From assembly GCA_002338125.1 (NCBI GenBank), contig DDHN01000008.1:113094-176152 (forward strand): 63,059 nt of DNA. Direction: 5' to 3'. How positions within the stretch are numbered: position 1 is the first letter of the stretch; every line of letters begins with the position of its first letter. This document shows positions 6,741 to 57,954 of the stretch, in pieces. A program made the position numbers and the translations under genes. This DNA is from Patescibacteria group bacterium UBA1875 (GTDB lineage: Bacteria; Patescibacteriota; CPR2; UBA1875). Under the pieces are notes generated by a model. It had not been told where the DNA came from. It searched no databases and worked only from the letters and a program-made list of their open reading frames with translations.

Positions 6741-7346
6741 ATGAAAAAAGCTAAATTATCAGAATTATGGCAAGAGGTTGAAAGCTCTTTGGCAGGGGAT
6801 AAGACTGCCGGTATCAAATTTGCCATTCTTGAAGCTCATAAAATCTTAGAAAACACTCTTCGATCGCAGGGTTACCCCGGTAAAACCTTAAAAAAACAAC
6901 TTTATTGGGCAGGCTATTCTTTGGAAGACGAAGATGGAATCAAGGCGGCGCTTGAAAAGCGTGATGATATATTACGTAATTTCGATTATGACCTCAGCAG
7001 TCTTGAAGCGGAAGAGATTATAAAAATGTATAAAAAAATTGTTCATGAAATCGTGACTAAGCCAAAATTTAGTTTCAAGAACAAATTAAAAGCTTTTTAC
7101 AAGATCCAATTAAATCCAAAATCTATTCTGTTTTGGCGAAATTTAGGTGTTATTGTTATTGTTTTATGCCTAATTAAGATTTTAGCTTATACTGAGTTTG
7201 GTAAAGTATTGTTAGGTGTGGTGGTAGCAATTACCGACTTAGTGATTTCATGGATTTCAGTAGCGGCGATAATGTTTATTGTAATTATCGTTCTCTTGGT
7301 TAATAACTATCTTGATAAAAAATCAAAGATCTTGATAAAAGAGTAA
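6741..7346 (+). CDS. Hypothetical protein with a soluble N-terminal domain and two C-terminal TM helices
   Basis: 201-aa ORF with backbone-like composition and no recognised motif. TATAAT 6729-6734 lies 6 nt upstream of the ATG. Confidence 0.6.
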   Translation: MKKAKLSELWQEVESSLAGDKTAGIKFAILEAHKILENTLRSQGYPGKTLKKQLYWAGYSLEDEDGIKAALEKRDDILRNFDYDLSSLEAEEIIKMYKKIVHEIVTKPKFSFKNKLKAFYKIQLNPKSILFWRNLGVIVIVLCLIKILAYTEFGKVLLGVVVAITDLVISWISVAAIMFIVIIVLLVNNYLDKKSKILIKE

Positions 7347-7475
7347 AATACTTTTTTATTTCGATAATTTTATCTATACTATAATTATTAAGGAGGGAGC
7401 AATTCCTTTTTTTGTTGGGGGAGAAGCATAACTGTTTCTACCAGTTATCGTTTTTAATTTTAAAACAGAGGAGTT

Positions 7476-10400
7476 ATGTCGCAATCGATAAAATCGAATA
7501 AACTGGTGAAGGGTGGATTTGTTCATCTTCATGTTCACACTCACTATTCCTTACTTGATGGAATGTGCAAAATCCCGCAACTTTTAGACCGAGCCAAAGA
7601 TTATGGGATGCCGGCAGTAGCTATAACAGATCACGGTGTTATGTATGGTGTAGTCGAATTCTTAAAAGAGGCTAGGGCAAGGGGAATAAAACCAATTATC
7701 GGGTGTGAAGTCTATATCGCTCCAAGAGGAATGAGAGACAAAACCCCAAAAATTGATACAAACCCCTCGCACTTAGTCCTTTTGGCTAAAAACGAAATTG
7801 GCTATAAAAATTTGATGGAAATGGTCACTGAGGCACATCTTGAAGGTTATTACTATAAACCGCGAATTGATAAGGAACTACTTTCAAAAAAATTCGAAGG
7901 CTTGATAGCTTTGTCTTCTTGTTTACATAGTGAAATAGCAACTAATCTTTTAGAAAAAAATGAGAAGAAGGCACAGAAGGTACTCGATTTCTATAAAAAT
8001 CTTTTTGGTGATGACTTTTATATCGAACTTCAATTTAACCCCGGACTACCGGAACAGGATATTGCTAACAAAAAATTACTAAAATTAGCTAAGAAGAATA
8101 ATGTTAAAGTTGTAGCTAGTAAAGATGTCCACTATATCGATAAAGATGATCGAGAAGCCCATGATGCTTTAATATGTGTTCAGACAGGGAAAATGGTAAG
8201 CGACGAAGACCGGATGCGCTTTAATTCAGATCAATCATTCTTGTCGCCTCAGGAGATGGCAGATGCATTTAAGGATGTACCGGAAGCGATAACCAATACG
8301 CTAGAGGTTGCCGAAAAATGTGAATTTGGAGATAACTACAAACTGCCTTTTGCAGATGAGAAGAAGATTTTAATTCCTAAATTCGATATCCCAAAAGGGA
8401 AAACCAAAAGACAGTATTTAGAAGCCCTGGTCTCAAAAGGGCTCACCCAAAGATATAAAAAAATCACCAAAGCAATAAAAGATCGAGCTGCTTATGAATT
8501 GGAAGTAATTGAAAGAATGAAATTCGAGGATTATTTTTTGATTGTTGCGGATTTTGTAAACTGGGCTAAGGGTCAAGGTATATTAGTTGGCCCTGGCAGA
8601 GGTTCGGCTGCCGGTTCTGTTGTTTCTTATGCCTTGGGTATTGTTGATTTGGACCCCTTAAAATATGATCTTCTTTTTGAAAGATTTCTGAATCCAGATC
8701 GTATTTCGATGCCTGATATTGATATGGATTTTGCTGATGATCGAAGAAGTGAAGTTATTGAATATACGGTAGAAAAATACGGTAAAGATAAAGTAGCTCA
8801 GATCATAACTTTCGGGACTATGGCAGCTAGAAATGCTGTTAGGGATACTGGTCGTGTTCTTGGTATGAGTTATGCTGAGGTTGACGAAGTTGCTAAGGCA
8901 ATTCCTTCGAATATCCCTCTGGCTGTTTCGGTCAAAGAAGTCCCAGAGTTAGCGGCCTTTTACAATCAGGGGGGTAACTACAAAAAATTATTAGATTTAG
9001 CTCAAAGGTTAGAAGGAGTGGCTCGCCATTCCTCTACTCATGCAGCCGGAGTGGTTGTAGCTCAGGAGCCTTTGGTTGAGTTTACTCCGCTTCAAAAAGC
9101 AGTTAAGGGAGATGTCTCTTGGCAAACCCAGTATGAGATGCATGCTATCGAAGATCTTGGACTACTCAAAATGGACTTTTTGGGTCTCTCAAACTTAACA
9201 ATACTGAAAAATGCTCTACGGATTATTAAAAAAGTTTATGGTAAAGAAATAAATCTTTACGAACTACCCGATGATGACAAAAAAACTTACAAACTAATGA
9301 GCCAAGGGGAAACAACAGGAGTTTTTCAGCTTGAATCTTCCGGAATGAAGCGTTATTTAAAAGAACTTAAACCTAGTTGTTTCGAGGATGTTATAGCTAT
9401 GGTGGCAATGTATCGCCCAGGACCACTTAAATCAGGTATGGTTGATGAATTCATAGAGCGAAAGCATGGAAAAAGAAAGGTAACCTATCCTCACCCATTA
9501 ATGGAAAATGCTCTTTCTGATACTTATGGAGTTATTATTTATCAAGAACAGGTGATGCAACTTTCAAAGGATATGGCCGGTTTCACCGGAGGCCAGGCTG
9601 ATACTCTTAGAAAAGCTATGGGCAAAAAAATTAAAGATTTGATGGCCAAACTTAAAGTAGAATTTATCGAAGGTTGTGTAAAAAACAAAATAGATAAAAA
9701 AATAGCTGTAAAAACTTTTGAAGATATGGAAAAATTTGCTGAATATGGCTTCAATAAATCACATGCTGCATGTTATGCTCAAATTGCCTATTGGACCGCT
9801 TATTTAAAAGCTCATTTTCCTTCGGCTTTTATGGCGGCACTTTTAACCTCAGATTATTCGGATATTGACCGAATTGCTATTGAAATTTCTGAAGCTCAAG
9901 CCATGGGGATCGAGGTCCTTGGTCCCGATGTGAATGAATCATTTTCTGAATTTGGAGTTGCAAAAGATAGCGGTCAAATTAGATATGGATTAATTGCTAT
10001 AAAAAATGTTGGTAACGGAATTGTAGAAGCGATTCTTGATGCCCGAAAAGAGGGAGGCAAATTTACTGGAATTGAAGATTTTTGTATGCGAGTTAAGGCG
10101 GAGGAGGTCAACAAGAAGGTGATGGAAGCTCTGATAAAGTCGGGTGCTTTTGACTCTTTAAGTGATAGAAGTAAGCTTTTATATAACCTTGATAAGATAC
10201 TAGCTTTTACTCAAAAGGTTCAAAAAGGAGCAATTGATGGGCAAATGGGTCTTTTTGGAGAAGAGGCCAAGAATCAGGTTGCTTTTCACCTTGAACTCAT
10301 TGAACCAGAAGAAGAGTTAACAACAGAAGAGAAATTAGCTTTCGAAAAAGAACTTCTTGGAATATATTTTTCCGAACATCCGCTTGATGCCCATCAAGAC

Positions 10401-10977: not shown

Positions 10978-11006
10978 TTGACTTATATGCAATATTTTGG
11001 TATATT
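10978..11006 (+). promoter_or_regulatory. Sigma70-type promoter of island 1
   Basis: TTGACT (10978-10983), a 17-nt spacer, then TATATT (11001-11006) with an upstream TG (extended -10). Confidence 0.6.
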
Positions 11007-11013
11007 ATAGCGC

Positions 11014-11055
11014 ATCCGCTTCGGTGGATTGAACAATTTTCGACCTGTTAGGTCG
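11014..11055 (+). promoter_or_regulatory. Island 1 5' leader with two short hairpins
   Basis: ATCCGC-UUCG-GTGGAT (11014-11029) and CGACC-TGTTA-GGTCG (11041-11055). An AAGGAG SD lies at 11083-11088. Confidence 0.5.
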
Positions 11056-11093
11056 TTTGAACATTGAAAACATACCTAGTCTAAGGAGATATC

Positions 11094-11306
11094 ATGCGTT
11101 TTGCACTTCTTCCGCTTCTAGCAGCATCGATCATGCTCTTGGTGGGTATTGTCTTGTGTACAGATTGGAGGCCAGTTTCAAGGCTATTCAAGTCTCTGTA
11201 TCAAGACATTACTAATCCTAACCCGCTTTTCCCGGGACCATTCACTCGGTTCACGGGTATCATGCTTGGAACAGACATCGGCGAAGAGTCCAAGAAAGGA
11301 AGGTGA
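11094..11306 (+). CDS. Island 1 ORF-a: 70-aa protein with an N-terminal signal/anchor helix
   Basis: An AAGGAG SD lies 5 nt upstream of the ATG. The N-terminus (MRFALLPLLAASIMLLVGIVLC) is hydrophobic. No family recognised. Confidence 0.55.
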   Translation: MRFALLPLLAASIMLLVGIVLCTDWRPVSRLFKSLYQDITNPNPLFPGPFTRFTGIMLGTDIGEESKKGR

Positions 11307-11382
11307 AGGCGATGTATTTGGGTCCGTAACATTTCCTCATCGTTTGCGACAGAAAGGAAAACAACGATGAGGGAGGGGCAAC

Positions 11383-11652
11383 ATGAAGGGTTCAAGGTTC
11401 GACCATCGGGGTTACGAGATTTATCGCAACCCAGTTCCGGTAGAAATACTGGAAGAGATCGAAGGTAAGTTGACTCCTAGGGAGACAACTGGCTACGAGT
11501 TCGTTGTCTATCATGACGGTCTGCCGCTAGACATCAATGTCACGGCTCTTAATCGTCATCTTGGCCTCAAAGAGGTCAAGGAGTGGATCGATAGGCAGTT
11601 TGCAACACAAGCCGCAGCCGAGACCGACATTGTGTCGGCTCAGTCGAACTAG
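11383..11652 (+). CDS. Island 1 ORF-b: 89-aa soluble hypothetical protein
   Basis: A GAGGGAGGGG SD (11369-11378) precedes the ATG. No family recognised. Confidence 0.55.
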   Translation: MKGSRFDHRGYEIYRNPVPVEILEEIEGKLTPRETTGYEFVVYHDGLPLDINVTALNRHLGLKEVKEWIDRQFATQAAAETDIVSAQSN

Positions 11653-11661
11653 GGGAGGCAG

Positions 11662-12123
11662 ATGATGAAAACGGAAGAGAAGGTCGCATTTCTTGCCGAG
11701 ATGATCGAGGACTTCAATGCCCACGGTTGTCCAGGAAAGGCAGATACCGACAAGGGTCTCCACTATGCAAGGGAGATCATCGACTCGCTCCATCATTGCG
11801 AAAAGCCTGAGGAAGGGGCCGTATATCTCATTACGGCTCTTAGCTTCAAGGCCATTGTCGCGATGGAGGCAGGCTGCCATGCTGATGCGGCAGACTGTCC
11901 TTGTTTCGAAAGCTGCTACGTGTGGACACACGCAGCAGCTGCCAACCCATCCCGATCAATAGTCTCTCTGGTTAGCAAAGGGAGACGCTGCGAGATGGGT
12001 AATGTCGAGTGTTCACTGAACCTCGACAACCCTGGCCGAAGGCATCGTGAGAGCGAATCGCTTCTGGATGTTGATAAGGCCATGGCCGAGAGCTATGTTC
12101 CCGAATCCGGGGCGGCGTGGTAG
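11662..12123 (+). CDS. Island 1 ORF-c: 153-aa Cys/His-rich hypothetical protein
   Basis: A GGGGAGG SD (11652-11658) overlaps the ORF-b stop. It has 8 Cys, including HGC, HHC, GCH and DCPCFESC. Confidence 0.6.
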   Translation: MMKTEEKVAFLAEMIEDFNAHGCPGKADTDKGLHYAREIIDSLHHCEKPEEGAVYLITALSFKAIVAMEAGCHADAADCPCFESCYVWTHAAAANPSRSIVSLVSKGRRCEMGNVECSLNLDNPGRRHRESESLLDVDKAMAESYVPESGAAW

Positions 12124-12125
12124 CG

Positions 12126-12359
12126 ATGAACATAGAAATCATCGCCATGTGTATGGGTCGTGAGGGAACGGTTCTGCACGAGCCGTACACAGCAGCGAAT
12201 GTTGCTGCTGGTATCGTCCGTTCCGGTGGACGTGTCCTCGGAGTCGTCAAGTCAAACGTCGAAGGGGAGCCGATATTCCGGAAAACGGTAGAAATCGGTT
12301 CACCAGAAGAGATCAAGGAGTTCATTCTCGCTTTCTCAGGAGCTGAGGAGGGGGCATGA
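12126..12359 (+). CDS. Island 1 ORF-d: 77-aa hypothetical protein
   Basis: The ATG lies 2 nt after the ORF-c stop (an alternative GTG is at 12117). The stop overlaps the ORF-e start (ATGA). Confidence 0.5.
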   Translation: MNIEIIAMCMGREGTVLHEPYTAANVAAGIVRSGGRVLGVVKSNVEGEPIFRKTVEIGSPEEIKEFILAFSGAEEGA

Positions 12360-12565
12360 AGTGGTTCTGGGGTATCGTCTCCTTGGCAGTAATAACCTTA
12401 ATCGGTTTCGCTGCTGTTTGGGACCCAACCATTAGAGAGGCCGTAAGCGTTATTGCCTACTTGGCAATGGTTGCTGGCTTCTGGTGGATGGGGGTGAAAT
12501 TTGTTGGTCTTTGCGACGAAGTGAAGGCTAACAGTTTCGCAGCTTTCCATCGTGACAAGGACTAG
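12356..12565 (+). CDS. Island 1 ORF-e: 69-aa two-TM membrane protein
   Basis: A GAGGAGGGGG SD lies immediately upstream. There are two hydrophobic helices (FWGIVSLAVITLIGFAAVW and AVSVIAYLAMVAGFWWMGVKFVGL). Confidence 0.6.
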   Translation: MKWFWGIVSLAVITLIGFAAVWDPTIREAVSVIAYLAMVAGFWWMGVKFVGLCDEVKANSFAAFHRDKD

Positions 12566-12820
12566 GTGTTATCAGGCTCTGTTTCATACAGAGACAGCAC
12601 CTACTAGCAGATTGACTTCCGGGTAATACCTGGAGGCCGGATGCAGAGGGGGTTTTAGAGTTGTGAGCCCCTGCATCCGGCCGGTACTGGTCGTGCCAAC
12701 CCGTTCTCACAACGGGTACGACACTAAGGTACCGGTCGGTCTCCGAGTTAAAAACTCGGTCTGCGTCTAGGGATGACAGTTTTGCTTTGCGCGGCAAGGC
12801 TGTTATCCCTGATCATTCTA
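12566..12820 (+). ncRNA. Hairpin-dense non-coding 3' region of island 1 (candidate structured RNA)
   Basis: Six consecutive stable helices: 12577-12593, 12616-12636, 12636-12681, 12681-12735 (three stacked segments), 12743-12759 and 12769-12810. There is no plausible ORF with an SD. Confidence 0.45.
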
Positions 12821-12856
12821 CGGGCCCCAGTCTTCGGACGGGGCCCGTTCACTTTT
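12821..12856 (+). terminator. Island 1 rho-independent terminator
   Basis: CGGGCCCC-A-GTC-UUCG-GAC-GGGGCCCG (11-bp stem, UUCG loop) followed by TTCACTTTT. Confidence 0.75.
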
Positions 12857-12862
12857 AAAATA

Positions 12863-12891
12863 TTGACGAAAGTTTGTTTTTTTGATAATAT
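12863..12891 (+). promoter_or_regulatory. rplS promoter
   Basis: TTGACG, a 17-nt spacer, then TAATAT. The ATG is only about 12 nt downstream of the -10 and has no SD. Confidence 0.5.
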
Positions 12892-12903
12892 CTTCTGGCA
12901 ACT

Positions 12904-13626
12904 ATGAATACGCAATTATTAGAAAAAATAGAAAAAAGCCAGCTCAAGAAAGTTCCGGAAGTTCGTCCCGGTGATCTTGTTCGTGTTCATCAAAAGATTA
13001 AAGAAGGCAAAAAAGAAAGAATTCAGATATTTGAAGGAGTCGTTTTAAGGGTTAGGGGCGGTGGTCTTAGAAAATCTTTTATAGTAAGAAAGATATCCTT
13101 TGGTATTGGGGTTGAAAAGAGTTTCCTAATGCATGCTCCTAATATTATTAAAGTTGAAATCAAGAAAAGAGCGAAGGTCAGAAGGGCCTATTTGACTTAC
13201 CTTAGAAGACTGACGGGGAAAAAGGCTCGTCTTAAAGATGAACAATTTGATTCTTTGGTAGTAAATGTAGAGCCAGAGCCAATCGAAACTGATAAAGAAT
13301 CCGAAAAGGGAGAAAAAACCTCTGATAGTGAGATTGCTGAAATCGATCCAGCAAAAACAGCTAATGTGGAAGTAGTTGAAGTCCCTTTATCGGAAGTAGA
13401 AAAAGAAGAGATAAAACAAGCAGAAGCTGAAGATGAGACAAAAGAAGGTCTAGATGAAGATGATCATCAAAAAATCGAGATTGAAGAAGTAGAAAAAGGT
13501 ATCGAAGAGGCCGAAAAAGATCTAGAAAAAGGCAAGACTAAAAAAACCGATCAAGCCGAAAAAGAAAAAGAAGACATTTCCCAAGAAGAAATTAAAGAAG
13601 AAATAAAAGAAGAAAAAGAGGCTTAA
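12904..13626 (+). CDS. rplS: Ribosomal protein L19 with a long acidic C-terminal extension
   Basis: L19 core (RPGDLVRVHQKIKEGKKERIQIFEGVVL...), followed by about 125 Glu/Lys-rich residues. Confidence 0.9.
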   Translation: MNTQLLEKIEKSQLKKVPEVRPGDLVRVHQKIKEGKKERIQIFEGVVLRVRGGGLRKSFIVRKISFGIGVEKSFLMHAPNIIKVEIKKRAKVRRAYLTYLRRLTGKKARLKDEQFDSLVVNVEPEPIETDKESEKGEKTSDSEIAEIDPAKTANVEVVEVPLSEVEKEEIKQAEAEDETKEGLDEDDHQKIEIEEVEKGIEEAEKDLEKGKTKKTDQAEKEKEDISQEEIKEEIKEEKEA

Positions 13627-28227: not shown

Positions 28228-28256
28228 TTGACAAAAATTAAATTTATGATATTATA
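28228..28256 (+). promoter_or_regulatory. Sigma70-type promoter of island 2
   Basis: TTGACA (28228-28233), then TGaTATTAT (-10 at 28250-28255), starting 6 nt after the recG stop. Confidence 0.6.
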
Positions 28257-28265
28257 GCGATATTA

Positions 28266-28302
28266 TCCGGTGCTAATACCGGAAGTCTCGATTGTGGTCG
28301 AG
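28266..28302 (+). promoter_or_regulatory. Island 2 5' leader with two short hairpins
   Basis: TCCGGT-GCTAAT-ACCGGA (28266-28283) and CTCGA-TTGTGG-TCGAG (28287-28302). An AAGGAAG SD lies at 28311-28317. Confidence 0.5.
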
Positions 28303-28325
28303 TTGACATTAAGGAAGTGATTTGA

Positions 28326-29258
28326 GTGTCTAGTGAGGGCAACGTCTTTGTTGTACGTCTCGACTTCCAGCTCAGCCCTTCGATCGACTTGTTCGATCTT
28401 GAAGACGGAGAAGGAAGGGTCTTCCTGAATCATGCCCCTGAGGTCATTAAAGAGAAGGGAGAATTTGTCCTCGTGCAATCAGAGGGACAATTTGGTTTCT
28501 CCCTTATCCCAGCTGCACCGATGAAAGCTGGGTACAAGAGGGTTGATTCCATCAAGAAGCTTGTGGAGTTGGTGCTTGAGTTTGGGCTGTGTAAGCCCTT
28601 CGTCCCGCGTGGCTACCATGGAATTGTCGAAAAGGGTTTGAGCGATCAGCTCCATAAGGCCTACAACGAGTGCCGATTCGGTTCCTACGTCAAGCTTCCT
28701 GATTCAAGTGTGGTGTTGGTGGTCAGCGATGAAGCTCTTGACCCAGGAACGTTTGTTGAGGCTCGGCGAGCCTGGAACAACGTTCTCGTTGTTGGGCGAG
28801 CTGAGTTCGAGAGCCGGCAACCATTCCGACACGAGAACTGGGCTAGCTTTGTAAGCGCTCTGATGGCTAGCTACCCTCAGCAAGTCAAAGGGCACTTGAC
28901 TCCTCGTAAGCCGCCAAGGAGGATTCAGGGAACTTGGGCCGGTCCCGACCTCGACTACATTAACCGTCGGGGGCAAGCCTCAACTCGTTTGCTTGTTGAC
29001 GGACAAGAAGAAGGGTCTGTCGTTACCGTGTATTTCACGCGTTGCGACAAAAACCCTTCCGTTCCGATCAGAACTGGTGAGGCTGTTGAGGTTTGGTATG
29101 CCGGTAAAGGTAACATTGCGGTTATCCCTTACGCTGGCCGAACCACTCAAGTCCTGCGACCAAGAGAGCTAGTCAGAGAGCTGGGAGTGCAAAGAGACAG
29201 TCTCGATGAGAGAAAACTCTCATCATACGACAACGTTCGCGTGGTCTACACTTCCTGA
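28326..29258 (+). CDS. Island 2 ORF: 310-aa soluble hypothetical protein
   Basis: The GTG start lies 8 nt downstream of AAGGAAG. There is no TM helix or signal peptide. The protein is beta-rich and Arg-rich, and no family is recognised. Confidence 0.65.
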   Translation: MSSEGNVFVVRLDFQLSPSIDLFDLEDGEGRVFLNHAPEVIKEKGEFVLVQSEGQFGFSLIPAAPMKAGYKRVDSIKKLVELVLEFGLCKPFVPRGYHGIVEKGLSDQLHKAYNECRFGSYVKLPDSSVVLVVSDEALDPGTFVEARRAWNNVLVVGRAEFESRQPFRHENWASFVSALMASYPQQVKGHLTPRKPPRRIQGTWAGPDLDYINRRGQASTRLLVDGQEEGSVVTVYFTRCDKNPSVPIRTGEAVEVWYAGKGNIAVIPYAGRTTQVLRPRELVRELGVQRDSLDERKLSSYDNVRVVYTS

Positions 29259-29271
29259 AGTAGTCCCTTGT

Positions 29272-29300
29272 AACGGGCGCCTATCGAGGCGCCCGTTTTC
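29272..29300 (+). terminator. Island 2 rho-independent terminator
   Basis: AACGGGCGCC-TATCGA-GGCGCCCGTT followed by TTC and a T-rich tract. Confidence 0.75.
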
Positions 29301-29339
29301 AATCTTCATTCTTTTATAATTTAAGCATATAATTAAACT

Positions 29340-29885
29340 ATGCATATCGGAACAGGACAATTTGAAGGCAAGAAGATAAAAGATTCTCATGATGGCATCC
29401 CACTGTCAACTCGGACTTTAACTATTAAGGAATCAATATTTGAAATAATCGGAATTAGAATTCAGGAATCGGCTGTGCTTGATATCAACGACCGGAATGG
29501 AATGTATGGGATAGAGGCTATTTCCAAAGGAGCGGCCGTAGTTCAGTTTCTGAATATTCATAATGAAGAGAAGAATATAATTAAAGAAAATTTAAAAATG
29601 GTTGAACTTAATCCAGCTGACTTTGTGATTAATGAAAAACCGGAAAAATTTTTTTCAAAGAAAACTGATTTCAGATTTGATGTAATATTTTTCAGGGCTG
29701 TCGATAATCATTGTCTTTTGTTACTCGATAGAGTATTAGCAATGCAAACATCAAATGGCATAACTGTACTTTTCTACCCTCAAAACAAAGAATGCCAGTT
29801 TACCGGAGCCCCTGATGGCTACCAGGTGATTGATACTAGGGATGTTGAGACGGAAAGGGTAGTTGTATTACTTAAAGAAAAATAA
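29340..29885 (+). CDS. RsmD-like methyltransferase fold protein with degenerate catalytic motifs
   Basis: It is colinear with RsmD (GQFEGKKIK...TRTLTIKESIFEII...GIEAISKGAA...FDVIFF). However, FAGSG is replaced by NDRNG and DPPF by FRAV. Confidence 0.6.
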   Translation: MHIGTGQFEGKKIKDSHDGIPLSTRTLTIKESIFEIIGIRIQESAVLDINDRNGMYGIEAISKGAAVVQFLNIHNEEKNIIKENLKMVELNPADFVINEKPEKFFSKKTDFRFDVIFFRAVDNHCLLLLDRVLAMQTSNGITVLFYPQNKECQFTGAPDGYQVIDTRDVETERVVVLLKEK

Positions 29886-57922: not shown

Positions 57923-57954
57923 CCCGGACAGACCGGGCTCCCGAAGACTCGGGA
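57923..57954 (+). promoter_or_regulatory. Tandem GC-rich hairpins in the rpsD-rpoA spacer
   Basis: CCCGG-ACAGA-CCGGG (57923-57937) and TCCCGA-AGAC-TCGGGA (57939-57954), with no T-tract. The rpoA SD follows. Confidence 0.45.

Follow-up and report, generated by a model that had tools for sequence, protein, structure and literature searches.

Two GC-rich gene islands of a Patescibacteria genome begin with a common promoter, tandem-hairpin and box plan, and one of them carries a conserved leader RNA

Do two GC-rich gene islands, set among conserved housekeeping genes, begin with one and the same regulatory leader? The window analyzed here is the whole stretch of 63,059 nucleotides at C1:113094-176152 of the source assembly, which comprises 621 kb in 16 contigs at 37% GC and is 84% complete; all positions are given in window coordinates unless stated otherwise. 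Three stretches of ~50% GC break up conserved housekeeping gene pairs in the window: dnaE and rplS flank island 1 (about 11008-13007), recG and an rsmD-like gene flank island 2 (about 28308-29407), and fusA and tuf flank island 3. The first gene of island 1 (11094-11306, + strand) encodes a small membrane protein, and the 153-aa, 89-aa and 80-aa proteins of the same island are orphans for which no homologues were found. A phage or defence origin of the islands was rejected, as searches against Pfam, PHROG and PADLOC returned zero matches. Patescibacteria (CPR) cannot be grown alone, and to our knowledge almost nothing is known about their gene expression signals. The initial annotation of this DNA had proposed that islands 1 and 2 share a colinear promoter-leader module, absent from island 3, through which they may be co-regulated and which some highly expressed host operons also use. 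Inspection of island 3 bears out the absence of the module there, and the strings described for islands 1 and 2 (an 11-mer, paired hairpins in the same order, TTGA(A)CATT and an AAGGA(G/A) SD) were all found at their given coordinates. What the strings amount to is considered below.

Both islands start with a near-consensus, TG-extended sigma-70 promoter on the + strand, located by consensus scan. In island 1 (10978..11006), the -35 element TTGACT (10978-83) is separated by a 17-nt spacer from the -10 element TATATT (11001-06), with 10 of 12 consensus matches; in island 2 (28228..28255), TTGACA (28228-33), a 16-nt spacer and TATTAT (28250-55) give 11 of 12. The island-2 promoter is kept in the orthologue loci, and the organism is shown to use textbook sigma-70 promoters. 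The 11-mer ATATTATAGCG (11002..11012 and 28249..28259, +), which overlaps the -10 box and the predicted start region in both islands, is present in two copies only in the whole 621-kb genome. By itself, however, the shared 11-mer is unremarkable, mostly generic and largely made up of the TG-extended -10 box: runs of at least 11 nt around the -10 are common to 13 of 5,775 pairs of promoter-like sites, and island 2 has 12-mers in common with unrelated promoters. Its AGCG part is not kept in the island-2 orthologues, which have CCAC or CCTG there, and in island 1 the best -10 sits 2 nt away from the shared register, which would give a -35 to -10 spacing of 19 nt in island 1 versus 16 nt in island 2. 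Transcription start positions in both islands are predictions from the -10 box.

Downstream, the two leaders follow a shared, non-random plan that is unusual for the genome: strong promoter, two short GC hairpins, a UUGA(A)CA(A)UU box and an SD. In island 1 (all +), hairpin 1 (11014..11029; AUCCGC-UUCG-GUGGAU, with a cUUCGg tetraloop) lies 0-2 nt from the predicted start and is followed immediately on its 3' side by a first box copy, UUGAACAAUU (11029..11038). Hairpin 2 (11041..11055; CGACC-UGUUA-GGUCG), found like hairpin 1 by both folding and hairpin scans, is followed after 1 nt by a second copy (11057..11065; TTGAACATT as DNA, UUGAACAUU as RNA). A third box-related string, UUGAAAAC (11064-11071), is identical to the core of the boxA-like string in the genome's 16S leader, and the SD and start region (11083..11096) contains AAGGAG at 11083-88 and ATG at 11094. 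The structured leader of island 2 (28260..28314, +) consists of P1 (28266-28283; TCCGGT/GCTAAT/ACCGGA), P2 (28287-28302; CTCGAT/TGTG/GTCGAG) and the UUGACAUU box at 28303-28310 (TTGACATT); sequence reading places the SD at 28311-17 and the GTG start at 28326 (+). We also considered TTGACATT as the -35 of a second promoter and rejected this because the sequence offers no suitably spaced -10. Hairpin 1 begins 7 nt (island 1) or 10 nt (island 2) past the -10 hexamer, 0-6 nt from the predicted start. The two hairpins are 11 nt apart in island 1 versus 3 nt in island 2, and their loop sizes also differ. Whole-leader folding energy is ordinary in the source genome (z of -0.6 for island 1 and -1.1 for island 2); the island-2-type leader of genome G004, at z -2.75, is the sole leader to reach that level.

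Comparative evidence on the leader comes from island 2. Its 310-aa protein has three other clusters only among 5.8 billion proteins (55, 54 and 46% identity), and the gene lies after recG in all three loci with a visible upstream gene, the fourth contig being too short to show neighbours. All four leaders have the same plan: promoter, ~10 nt, a 6-bp stem with a 6-nt loop, 3 nt, a second stem, box, SD and start, the second stem being 6 bp with a UGNG loop and the box TTGACA(A)TT throughout. All 12 pairs are intact in every one of these orthologous leaders, 6 with changes on both sides, and neither any of 500 shuffles nor any slid register reaches the observed pairing. The UUGACA(A)UU box hardly varies among them. 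The leader of island 2 is a conserved RNA whose structure is maintained by compensatory change across genera; new here is this structure, kept ahead of the same gene in four lineages at 46-55% protein identity. A small leader RNA of this kind heads at least one accessory gene.

A weak third hairpin is predicted at 28305..28330 (+), where GACAUU would pair with AGUGUC, including the GUG at 28326-28328, and leave the SD in the loop. Pairing of GACAUU with (A/G)(A/G)UGUC including the start codon is found in three of the four orthologues (G000, G004 and L012) at -4 to -5 kcal/mol; neither L013, the most distant orthologue, nor island 1 forms it, and the sole informative change in the pairing is U-A to U.G. 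The start codon of the island-2 gene is GUG here (28326) and AUG in L002, L012 and L014 (three loci, two lineages, 54-55% identity), a difference that preserves the pairing to the upstream GACAUU through U.G for U-A.

Is the island-1 leader another member of this family? A covariance model, R1, was built from the four island-2 orthologue leaders with island 1 left out. It scores island 2 at 74.6 bits; run on the window with filters off, it finds only the island-2 leader and leaves island 1 unreported at E<=10, a result at odds with the single common leader family proposed at the outset. Extending the scan to the whole genome and 32 class genomes, as the initial annotation had suggested, brought nothing real beyond the leader of the island-2 gene: real matches occur in G000 and G004 alone, and weak ones sit within coding regions (def, rplR and others). 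A joint covariance model of six hairpin-plus-box units met with a MAFFT alignment inconsistent with their structure. The promoter-plus-box pattern was found in 111 metagenome and 7 viral stretches, none with the hairpins and none matching R1, the R1 search of metagenome material covering 100 loci with that pattern; a degenerate pattern scan across the family yielded nothing new. A known curated RNA family (riboswitch, leader, thermometer or put-like) was rejected, since neither threshold gave an Rfam match: with Rfam 15, the gathering-threshold scan of the window returned one tRNA only, and permissive scans of both islands returned no leader match at E<=1. The box as a complement of 16S rRNA was likewise rejected, no complement being found in the first ~280 nt assembled. 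The same island-1 leader sequence recurs in five other samples (six copies in all, no variants), which excludes an assembly chimera; with all six copies identical, they yield no covariation for its hairpins.

We then asked how far the likeness of the two leaders goes beyond chance. By local alignment of the 75-nt leaders, islands 1 and 2 rank 3,250 of 5,775, which is the median, whereas global (colinear) alignment under three scoring schemes places them at rank 6-11 of 5,774 with the promoter included (top 0.2%) and at 58-98 of 5,774 for the leader alone (top 1-2%). Two non-overlapping hairpins with at least three G-C pairs each in the first 60 nt are present at 3 of 108 promoter-like sites, both islands being among the three, and dinucleotide shuffles of each leader reproduce this plan in 0.7-0.9% of cases. 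A hairpin followed by a UUGACAUU-like box is also commoner in the two island leaders than by chance. TTGA{1,2}CA{1,2}TT has 57 occurrences genome-wide; a stem of at least 5 bp lies within 3 nt upstream of five, three of which are in island leaders. All three well-formed hairpin-plus-box units of the genome are in island leaders, two of them in island 1, and the remaining non-coding sites with a hairpin and a box variant are mostly terminators adjoining a T-rich tract or the next -35, none of them leader-like. When the box is taken from the island-2 orthologues alone (TTGACA(A)TT, one edit allowed, hairpin no more than 3 nt upstream), the background is 4.8e-5 per nt, so that one unit in the 85-nt island-1 leader has P=0.004 and a pair of units 8e-6. 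Chance is an unlikely source of the double unit in island 1, even allowing for ~100 comparable leaders.

These statistics bear on a rival reading, in which the island-2 leader is real and gene-specific and island 1 resembles it through a coincidence of strong promoters and unrelated GC-rich hairpins. The global alignment ranks speak against coincidence, as does the presence of both islands in the group of three two-hairpin leaders found at 108 promoter-like sites, and the hairpin-plus-box statistics use a motif defined independently of island 1. Consistent with coincidence, on the other hand, are the median local alignment, the failure of R1 to detect island 1, the -10 consensus character of the 11-mer with its AGCG part lost in the orthologues, the 3-nt difference in promoter spacing in the shared register, the unequal hairpin spacing and loop sizes, and the post hoc nature of the leader comparison. 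We consider a coincidence rather unlikely, while giving it real weight.

Several promoter sets outside the window were also noticed. A second promoter and leader-start pair, TATTGACAAATT...TACTATGTCAYSCT.G.GGTAGGTG, occurs at C1:197235 (+), where it is followed by an ORF-free, structured-looking region, and at C1:235038 (-), where it heads a GC-richer gene. Three promoters, at C2:1181 (+), C3:10826 (+) and C4:18022 (-), are followed by TTAGCACTC-N9-GAGTGCTAA, which we take to be the CIRCE operator of HrcA-controlled chaperone genes. The best-scoring leader pair of the genome, with a local score of 38, is at C7:44786 (-) and C7:43008 (-), probably paralogous promoter-leader-gene starts ~1.8 kb apart.

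The proposed use of the module by highly expressed host operons found no support, since no other leader in the genome has a hairpin-plus-box unit. Two related strings had been cited in its favor, and both are present, but at chance level: the nusA string GGTCGACATT (14334-43) is the 3' arm of a terminator-like hairpin in the nusA leader, and CAATTTTCGA in the rplC leader (46392-401) occurs in 7 copies genome-wide. This removes a tempting, unsupported idea, that of an element shared with housekeeping operons. What survives of the co-regulating common leader is the shared plan, with a plausible 5' stabilizer; its use by host operons falls away, and a single element is not demonstrated.

A regulatory link restricted to the islands would take the stem-loop with UUGA(A)CA(A)UU as the site for one trans factor, an RNA-binding protein or an RNase Y-type endonuclease that would cut within the single-stranded box, so that the islands are co-regulated or co-processed. 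Such a factor would account for the confinement of all three well-formed units, two of them in island 1, to island leaders, for the probability of ~8e-6 of finding at least two units in the island-1 leader with a box from the island-2 orthologues only, and for a box that stays invariant in those orthologues while the stems covary; RNase Y is present. Yet R1 misses island 1, insertions distinguish the box variants from one another, a pattern seldom seen in a sequence-specific site, and the positional analogue of island 1 in G002 is without a clear unit. No further hairpin-plus-box copies were found in the genome, the family and class genomes or the metagenome loci, so the regulon would be limited to two members. 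We regard a common trans factor as unlikely. Decidedly improbable, in our estimate, is the further step that the stem-loop and UUGA(A)CA(A)UU form an undescribed Patescibacteria cis-element that marks GC-rich accessory cassettes and is read by a dedicated factor, for which a diverged Nus-type loading site related to rrn boxA CUUGAMAAC, or an RNase Y processing signal, could be candidates. If true, it would place the cassettes under common post-transcriptional control, separate from housekeeping genes.

The order of hairpin and box, like that of rrn boxB-boxA, also calls to mind processive antitermination, with the leader serving either as a boxB/boxA-like site for NusB-S10 loading or as a put-like two-hairpin RNA that acts on RNA polymerase, which would then read on through the GC-rich cassette. 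NusB is present (PF01029 match of 124.2 bits at C1:82653-83066, contig coordinates), BoxA elements are found in mRNA leaders of other bacteria (PMC5725501), and the island boxes have UUGACA or UUGAAAAC in common with the genome's own rrn boxA-like strings, which are CUUGAAAACUGAAUA in the 16S leader and CUUGACAACUGAAUA in the 23S leader. The rrn boxes compared with the island boxes were GCUUGAAAACUGAAUA and CCUUGACAACUGAAUA. The likeness is limited to 6-8 nt: the 3' half ACUGAAUA is absent, and no island box fully matches the 8-nt NusB-S10 contact core of the own rrn boxA, the match ending at UUGACA or UUGAAAAC. Moreover, BoxA is bound as single-stranded RNA through an 8-nt core (PMC3177189), yet the would-be 5' half of the island boxA is base-paired in hairpin 2. 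In the 84%-complete genome the search for Rho, against which Nus antitermination is usually directed, found no match, and neither did the Rfam scans. Taken together, we judge antitermination very improbable. The rRNA leaders themselves, which lie outside the window, carry the boxA-like GCUUGAAAACUGAAUAG and CCUUGACAACUGAAUAU, with a genome-specific boxA consensus of CUUGAMAACUGAAUA. The 16S (C16:~280-520, -) and 23S (C2:~7240-7640, +) are on separate contigs, each with its own consensus promoter, which suggests an unlinked rRNA operon.

The reading we favor, tentatively and at somewhat less than even confidence, is that the islands are independent, strongly expressed units whose mRNAs begin with a cis-acting, structured leader that stabilizes and insulates them. 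A near-consensus TG-extended sigma-70 promoter would fire, and within a few nt of the transcript 5' end two short, very stable stem-loops with UUCG or UGCG-type tetraloops would form. These would act as 5' stabilizers, protecting against the 5'-end-dependent attack of RNase J and RNase Y, and as insulators, keeping GC-rich coding RNA off the ribosome-binding site. The UUGA(A)CA(A)UU box would remain single-stranded between a hairpin, which it directly follows, and the SD shortly downstream; its weak pairing with the start-codon region may tune translation in island 2. The stabilizing effect and any role of the box are, like the transcription start positions, inferred.

The RNase inventory fits a 5' stabilizer, which was among the functions that the initial annotation had offered. 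The genome encodes RNase J, at 410.9 bits in a gene divided between the ends of contigs C10 and C7, and RNase Y, at 662.7 bits; RNase E/G (PF10150) was, like Rho (TIGR00767), not detected in the 84%-complete genome, the incompleteness of the assembly making both absences provisional. In Bacillus-type decay by RNase J/Y, 5' stem-loops and SD-bound ribosomes protect mRNAs (PMC7509114; PMC5737220). Loops of the UNCG type (UUCG in island 1, UGCG in G004 and L012) suggest selection for stability and not for a specific loop sequence, and in the island-2 leader it is structure rather than stem sequence that is conserved (12/12 pairs, four lineages). The invariance of the box across island-2 orthologues is unexplained by a pure stabilizer.

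A host-operon example of hairpins upstream of an SD is found in the rpsD-rpoA spacer (57923-57954, +), where adjacent GC hairpins, CCCGG/CCGGG and TCCCGA/TCGGGA, directly precede the rpoA SD with neither a T-tract nor a UUGACAUU-like box. At its 3' end, island 1 has a 285-nt ORF-free, GC-rich region (12566-12850, +) with a folding energy of -149.5 kcal/mol versus -98.2 +/- 5.5 for shuffles (z -9.3), and the cassette at the same site in G002 has a similar 3' region of 234 nt (L008 735-968, -; z -6.0). Neither region has an Rfam match; they may be structured 3' UTRs or non-coding RNAs. Extreme 3' structure of this kind, seen both in island 1 and in the G002 cassette, agrees with protection of the transcripts at either end, and in the B. 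subtilis hbs mRNA the 5' and 3' UTRs both add to transcript protection (PMC5737220). It is the combination of (i) RNase J/Y without E/G, (ii) a hairpin 1 close to the predicted 5' end, (iii) UNCG-type loops, (iv) the rpoA hairpins and (v) the structured 3' regions that leads us to favor stabilizing leaders. On this reading, the likeness of islands 1 and 2 reflects the same design solution, whether the leaders converged on it or a related leader was recruited, and is not a regulon signal shared with housekeeping genes.

In G002, another genus of the family, a 1.5-kb cassette of ~50% GC (L008 750-2250 (G002:C54), minus strand) also lies between dnaE and rplS and encodes small membrane and Cys-rich proteins. 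Homology to island 1 was rejected, there being no protein homology despite the same site. Its leader has UUGUCAAUU at 4-10 nt from a hairpin, the distance varying with the choice between two predicted hairpins; the unit is unconvincing. With unrelated cassettes at dnaE-rplS in two genera, the site looks like a conserved slot that holds different cassettes.

If the hairpins are stabilizers, they would help to explain the high expression of GC-rich, foreign-looking cassettes in an AT-rich minimal genome, in the setting of a Bacillus-type (RNase J/Y), apparently Rho-less RNA metabolism. Of modest practical value are the compact promoter-leader cassette and a testable RNA motif.

Finally, the islands can be set beside several known systems. 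Like phage morons and the cassettes of swap sites, they are self-contained promoter-to-terminator units of deviating GC between conserved genes, and the dnaE-rplS site likewise holds unrelated cassettes in two genera; the islands, however, have no phage context and no PHROG or PADLOC match, and island 2 is vertically inherited at the same site across genera. The rrn and lambda boxB-boxA elements (PMC5725501, PMC3177189) also follow a strong promoter and combine a hairpin with a short, conserved box of single-stranded RNA 3' of it, and UUGAMA is common to the island box and the genome's rrn boxA-like strings in an organism with NusB, but the island box matches half of boxA only, its 5' half would sit in a stem, and Rho is undetected. 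In the hbs 5' UTR of B. subtilis (PMC5737220), structure and a strong SD control the access of RNase Y/J1 and couple stability to translation initiation; the island leaders have no sequence or structural homology to it and are much shorter (~50-80 nt). The ompA stabilizer of E. coli and those of aprE and ermC in B. subtilis (PMC7509114) differ from the island leaders, which have two tandem hairpins and, in island 2, a sequence-invariant single-stranded box, and which head GC-rich accessory cassettes in a Patescibacteria genome. In both cases, however, short stable hairpins lie near the predicted 5' end, upstream of the SD, in hosts that degrade mRNA with enzymes requiring an accessible 5' end, which in this genome are RNase J and RNase Y.
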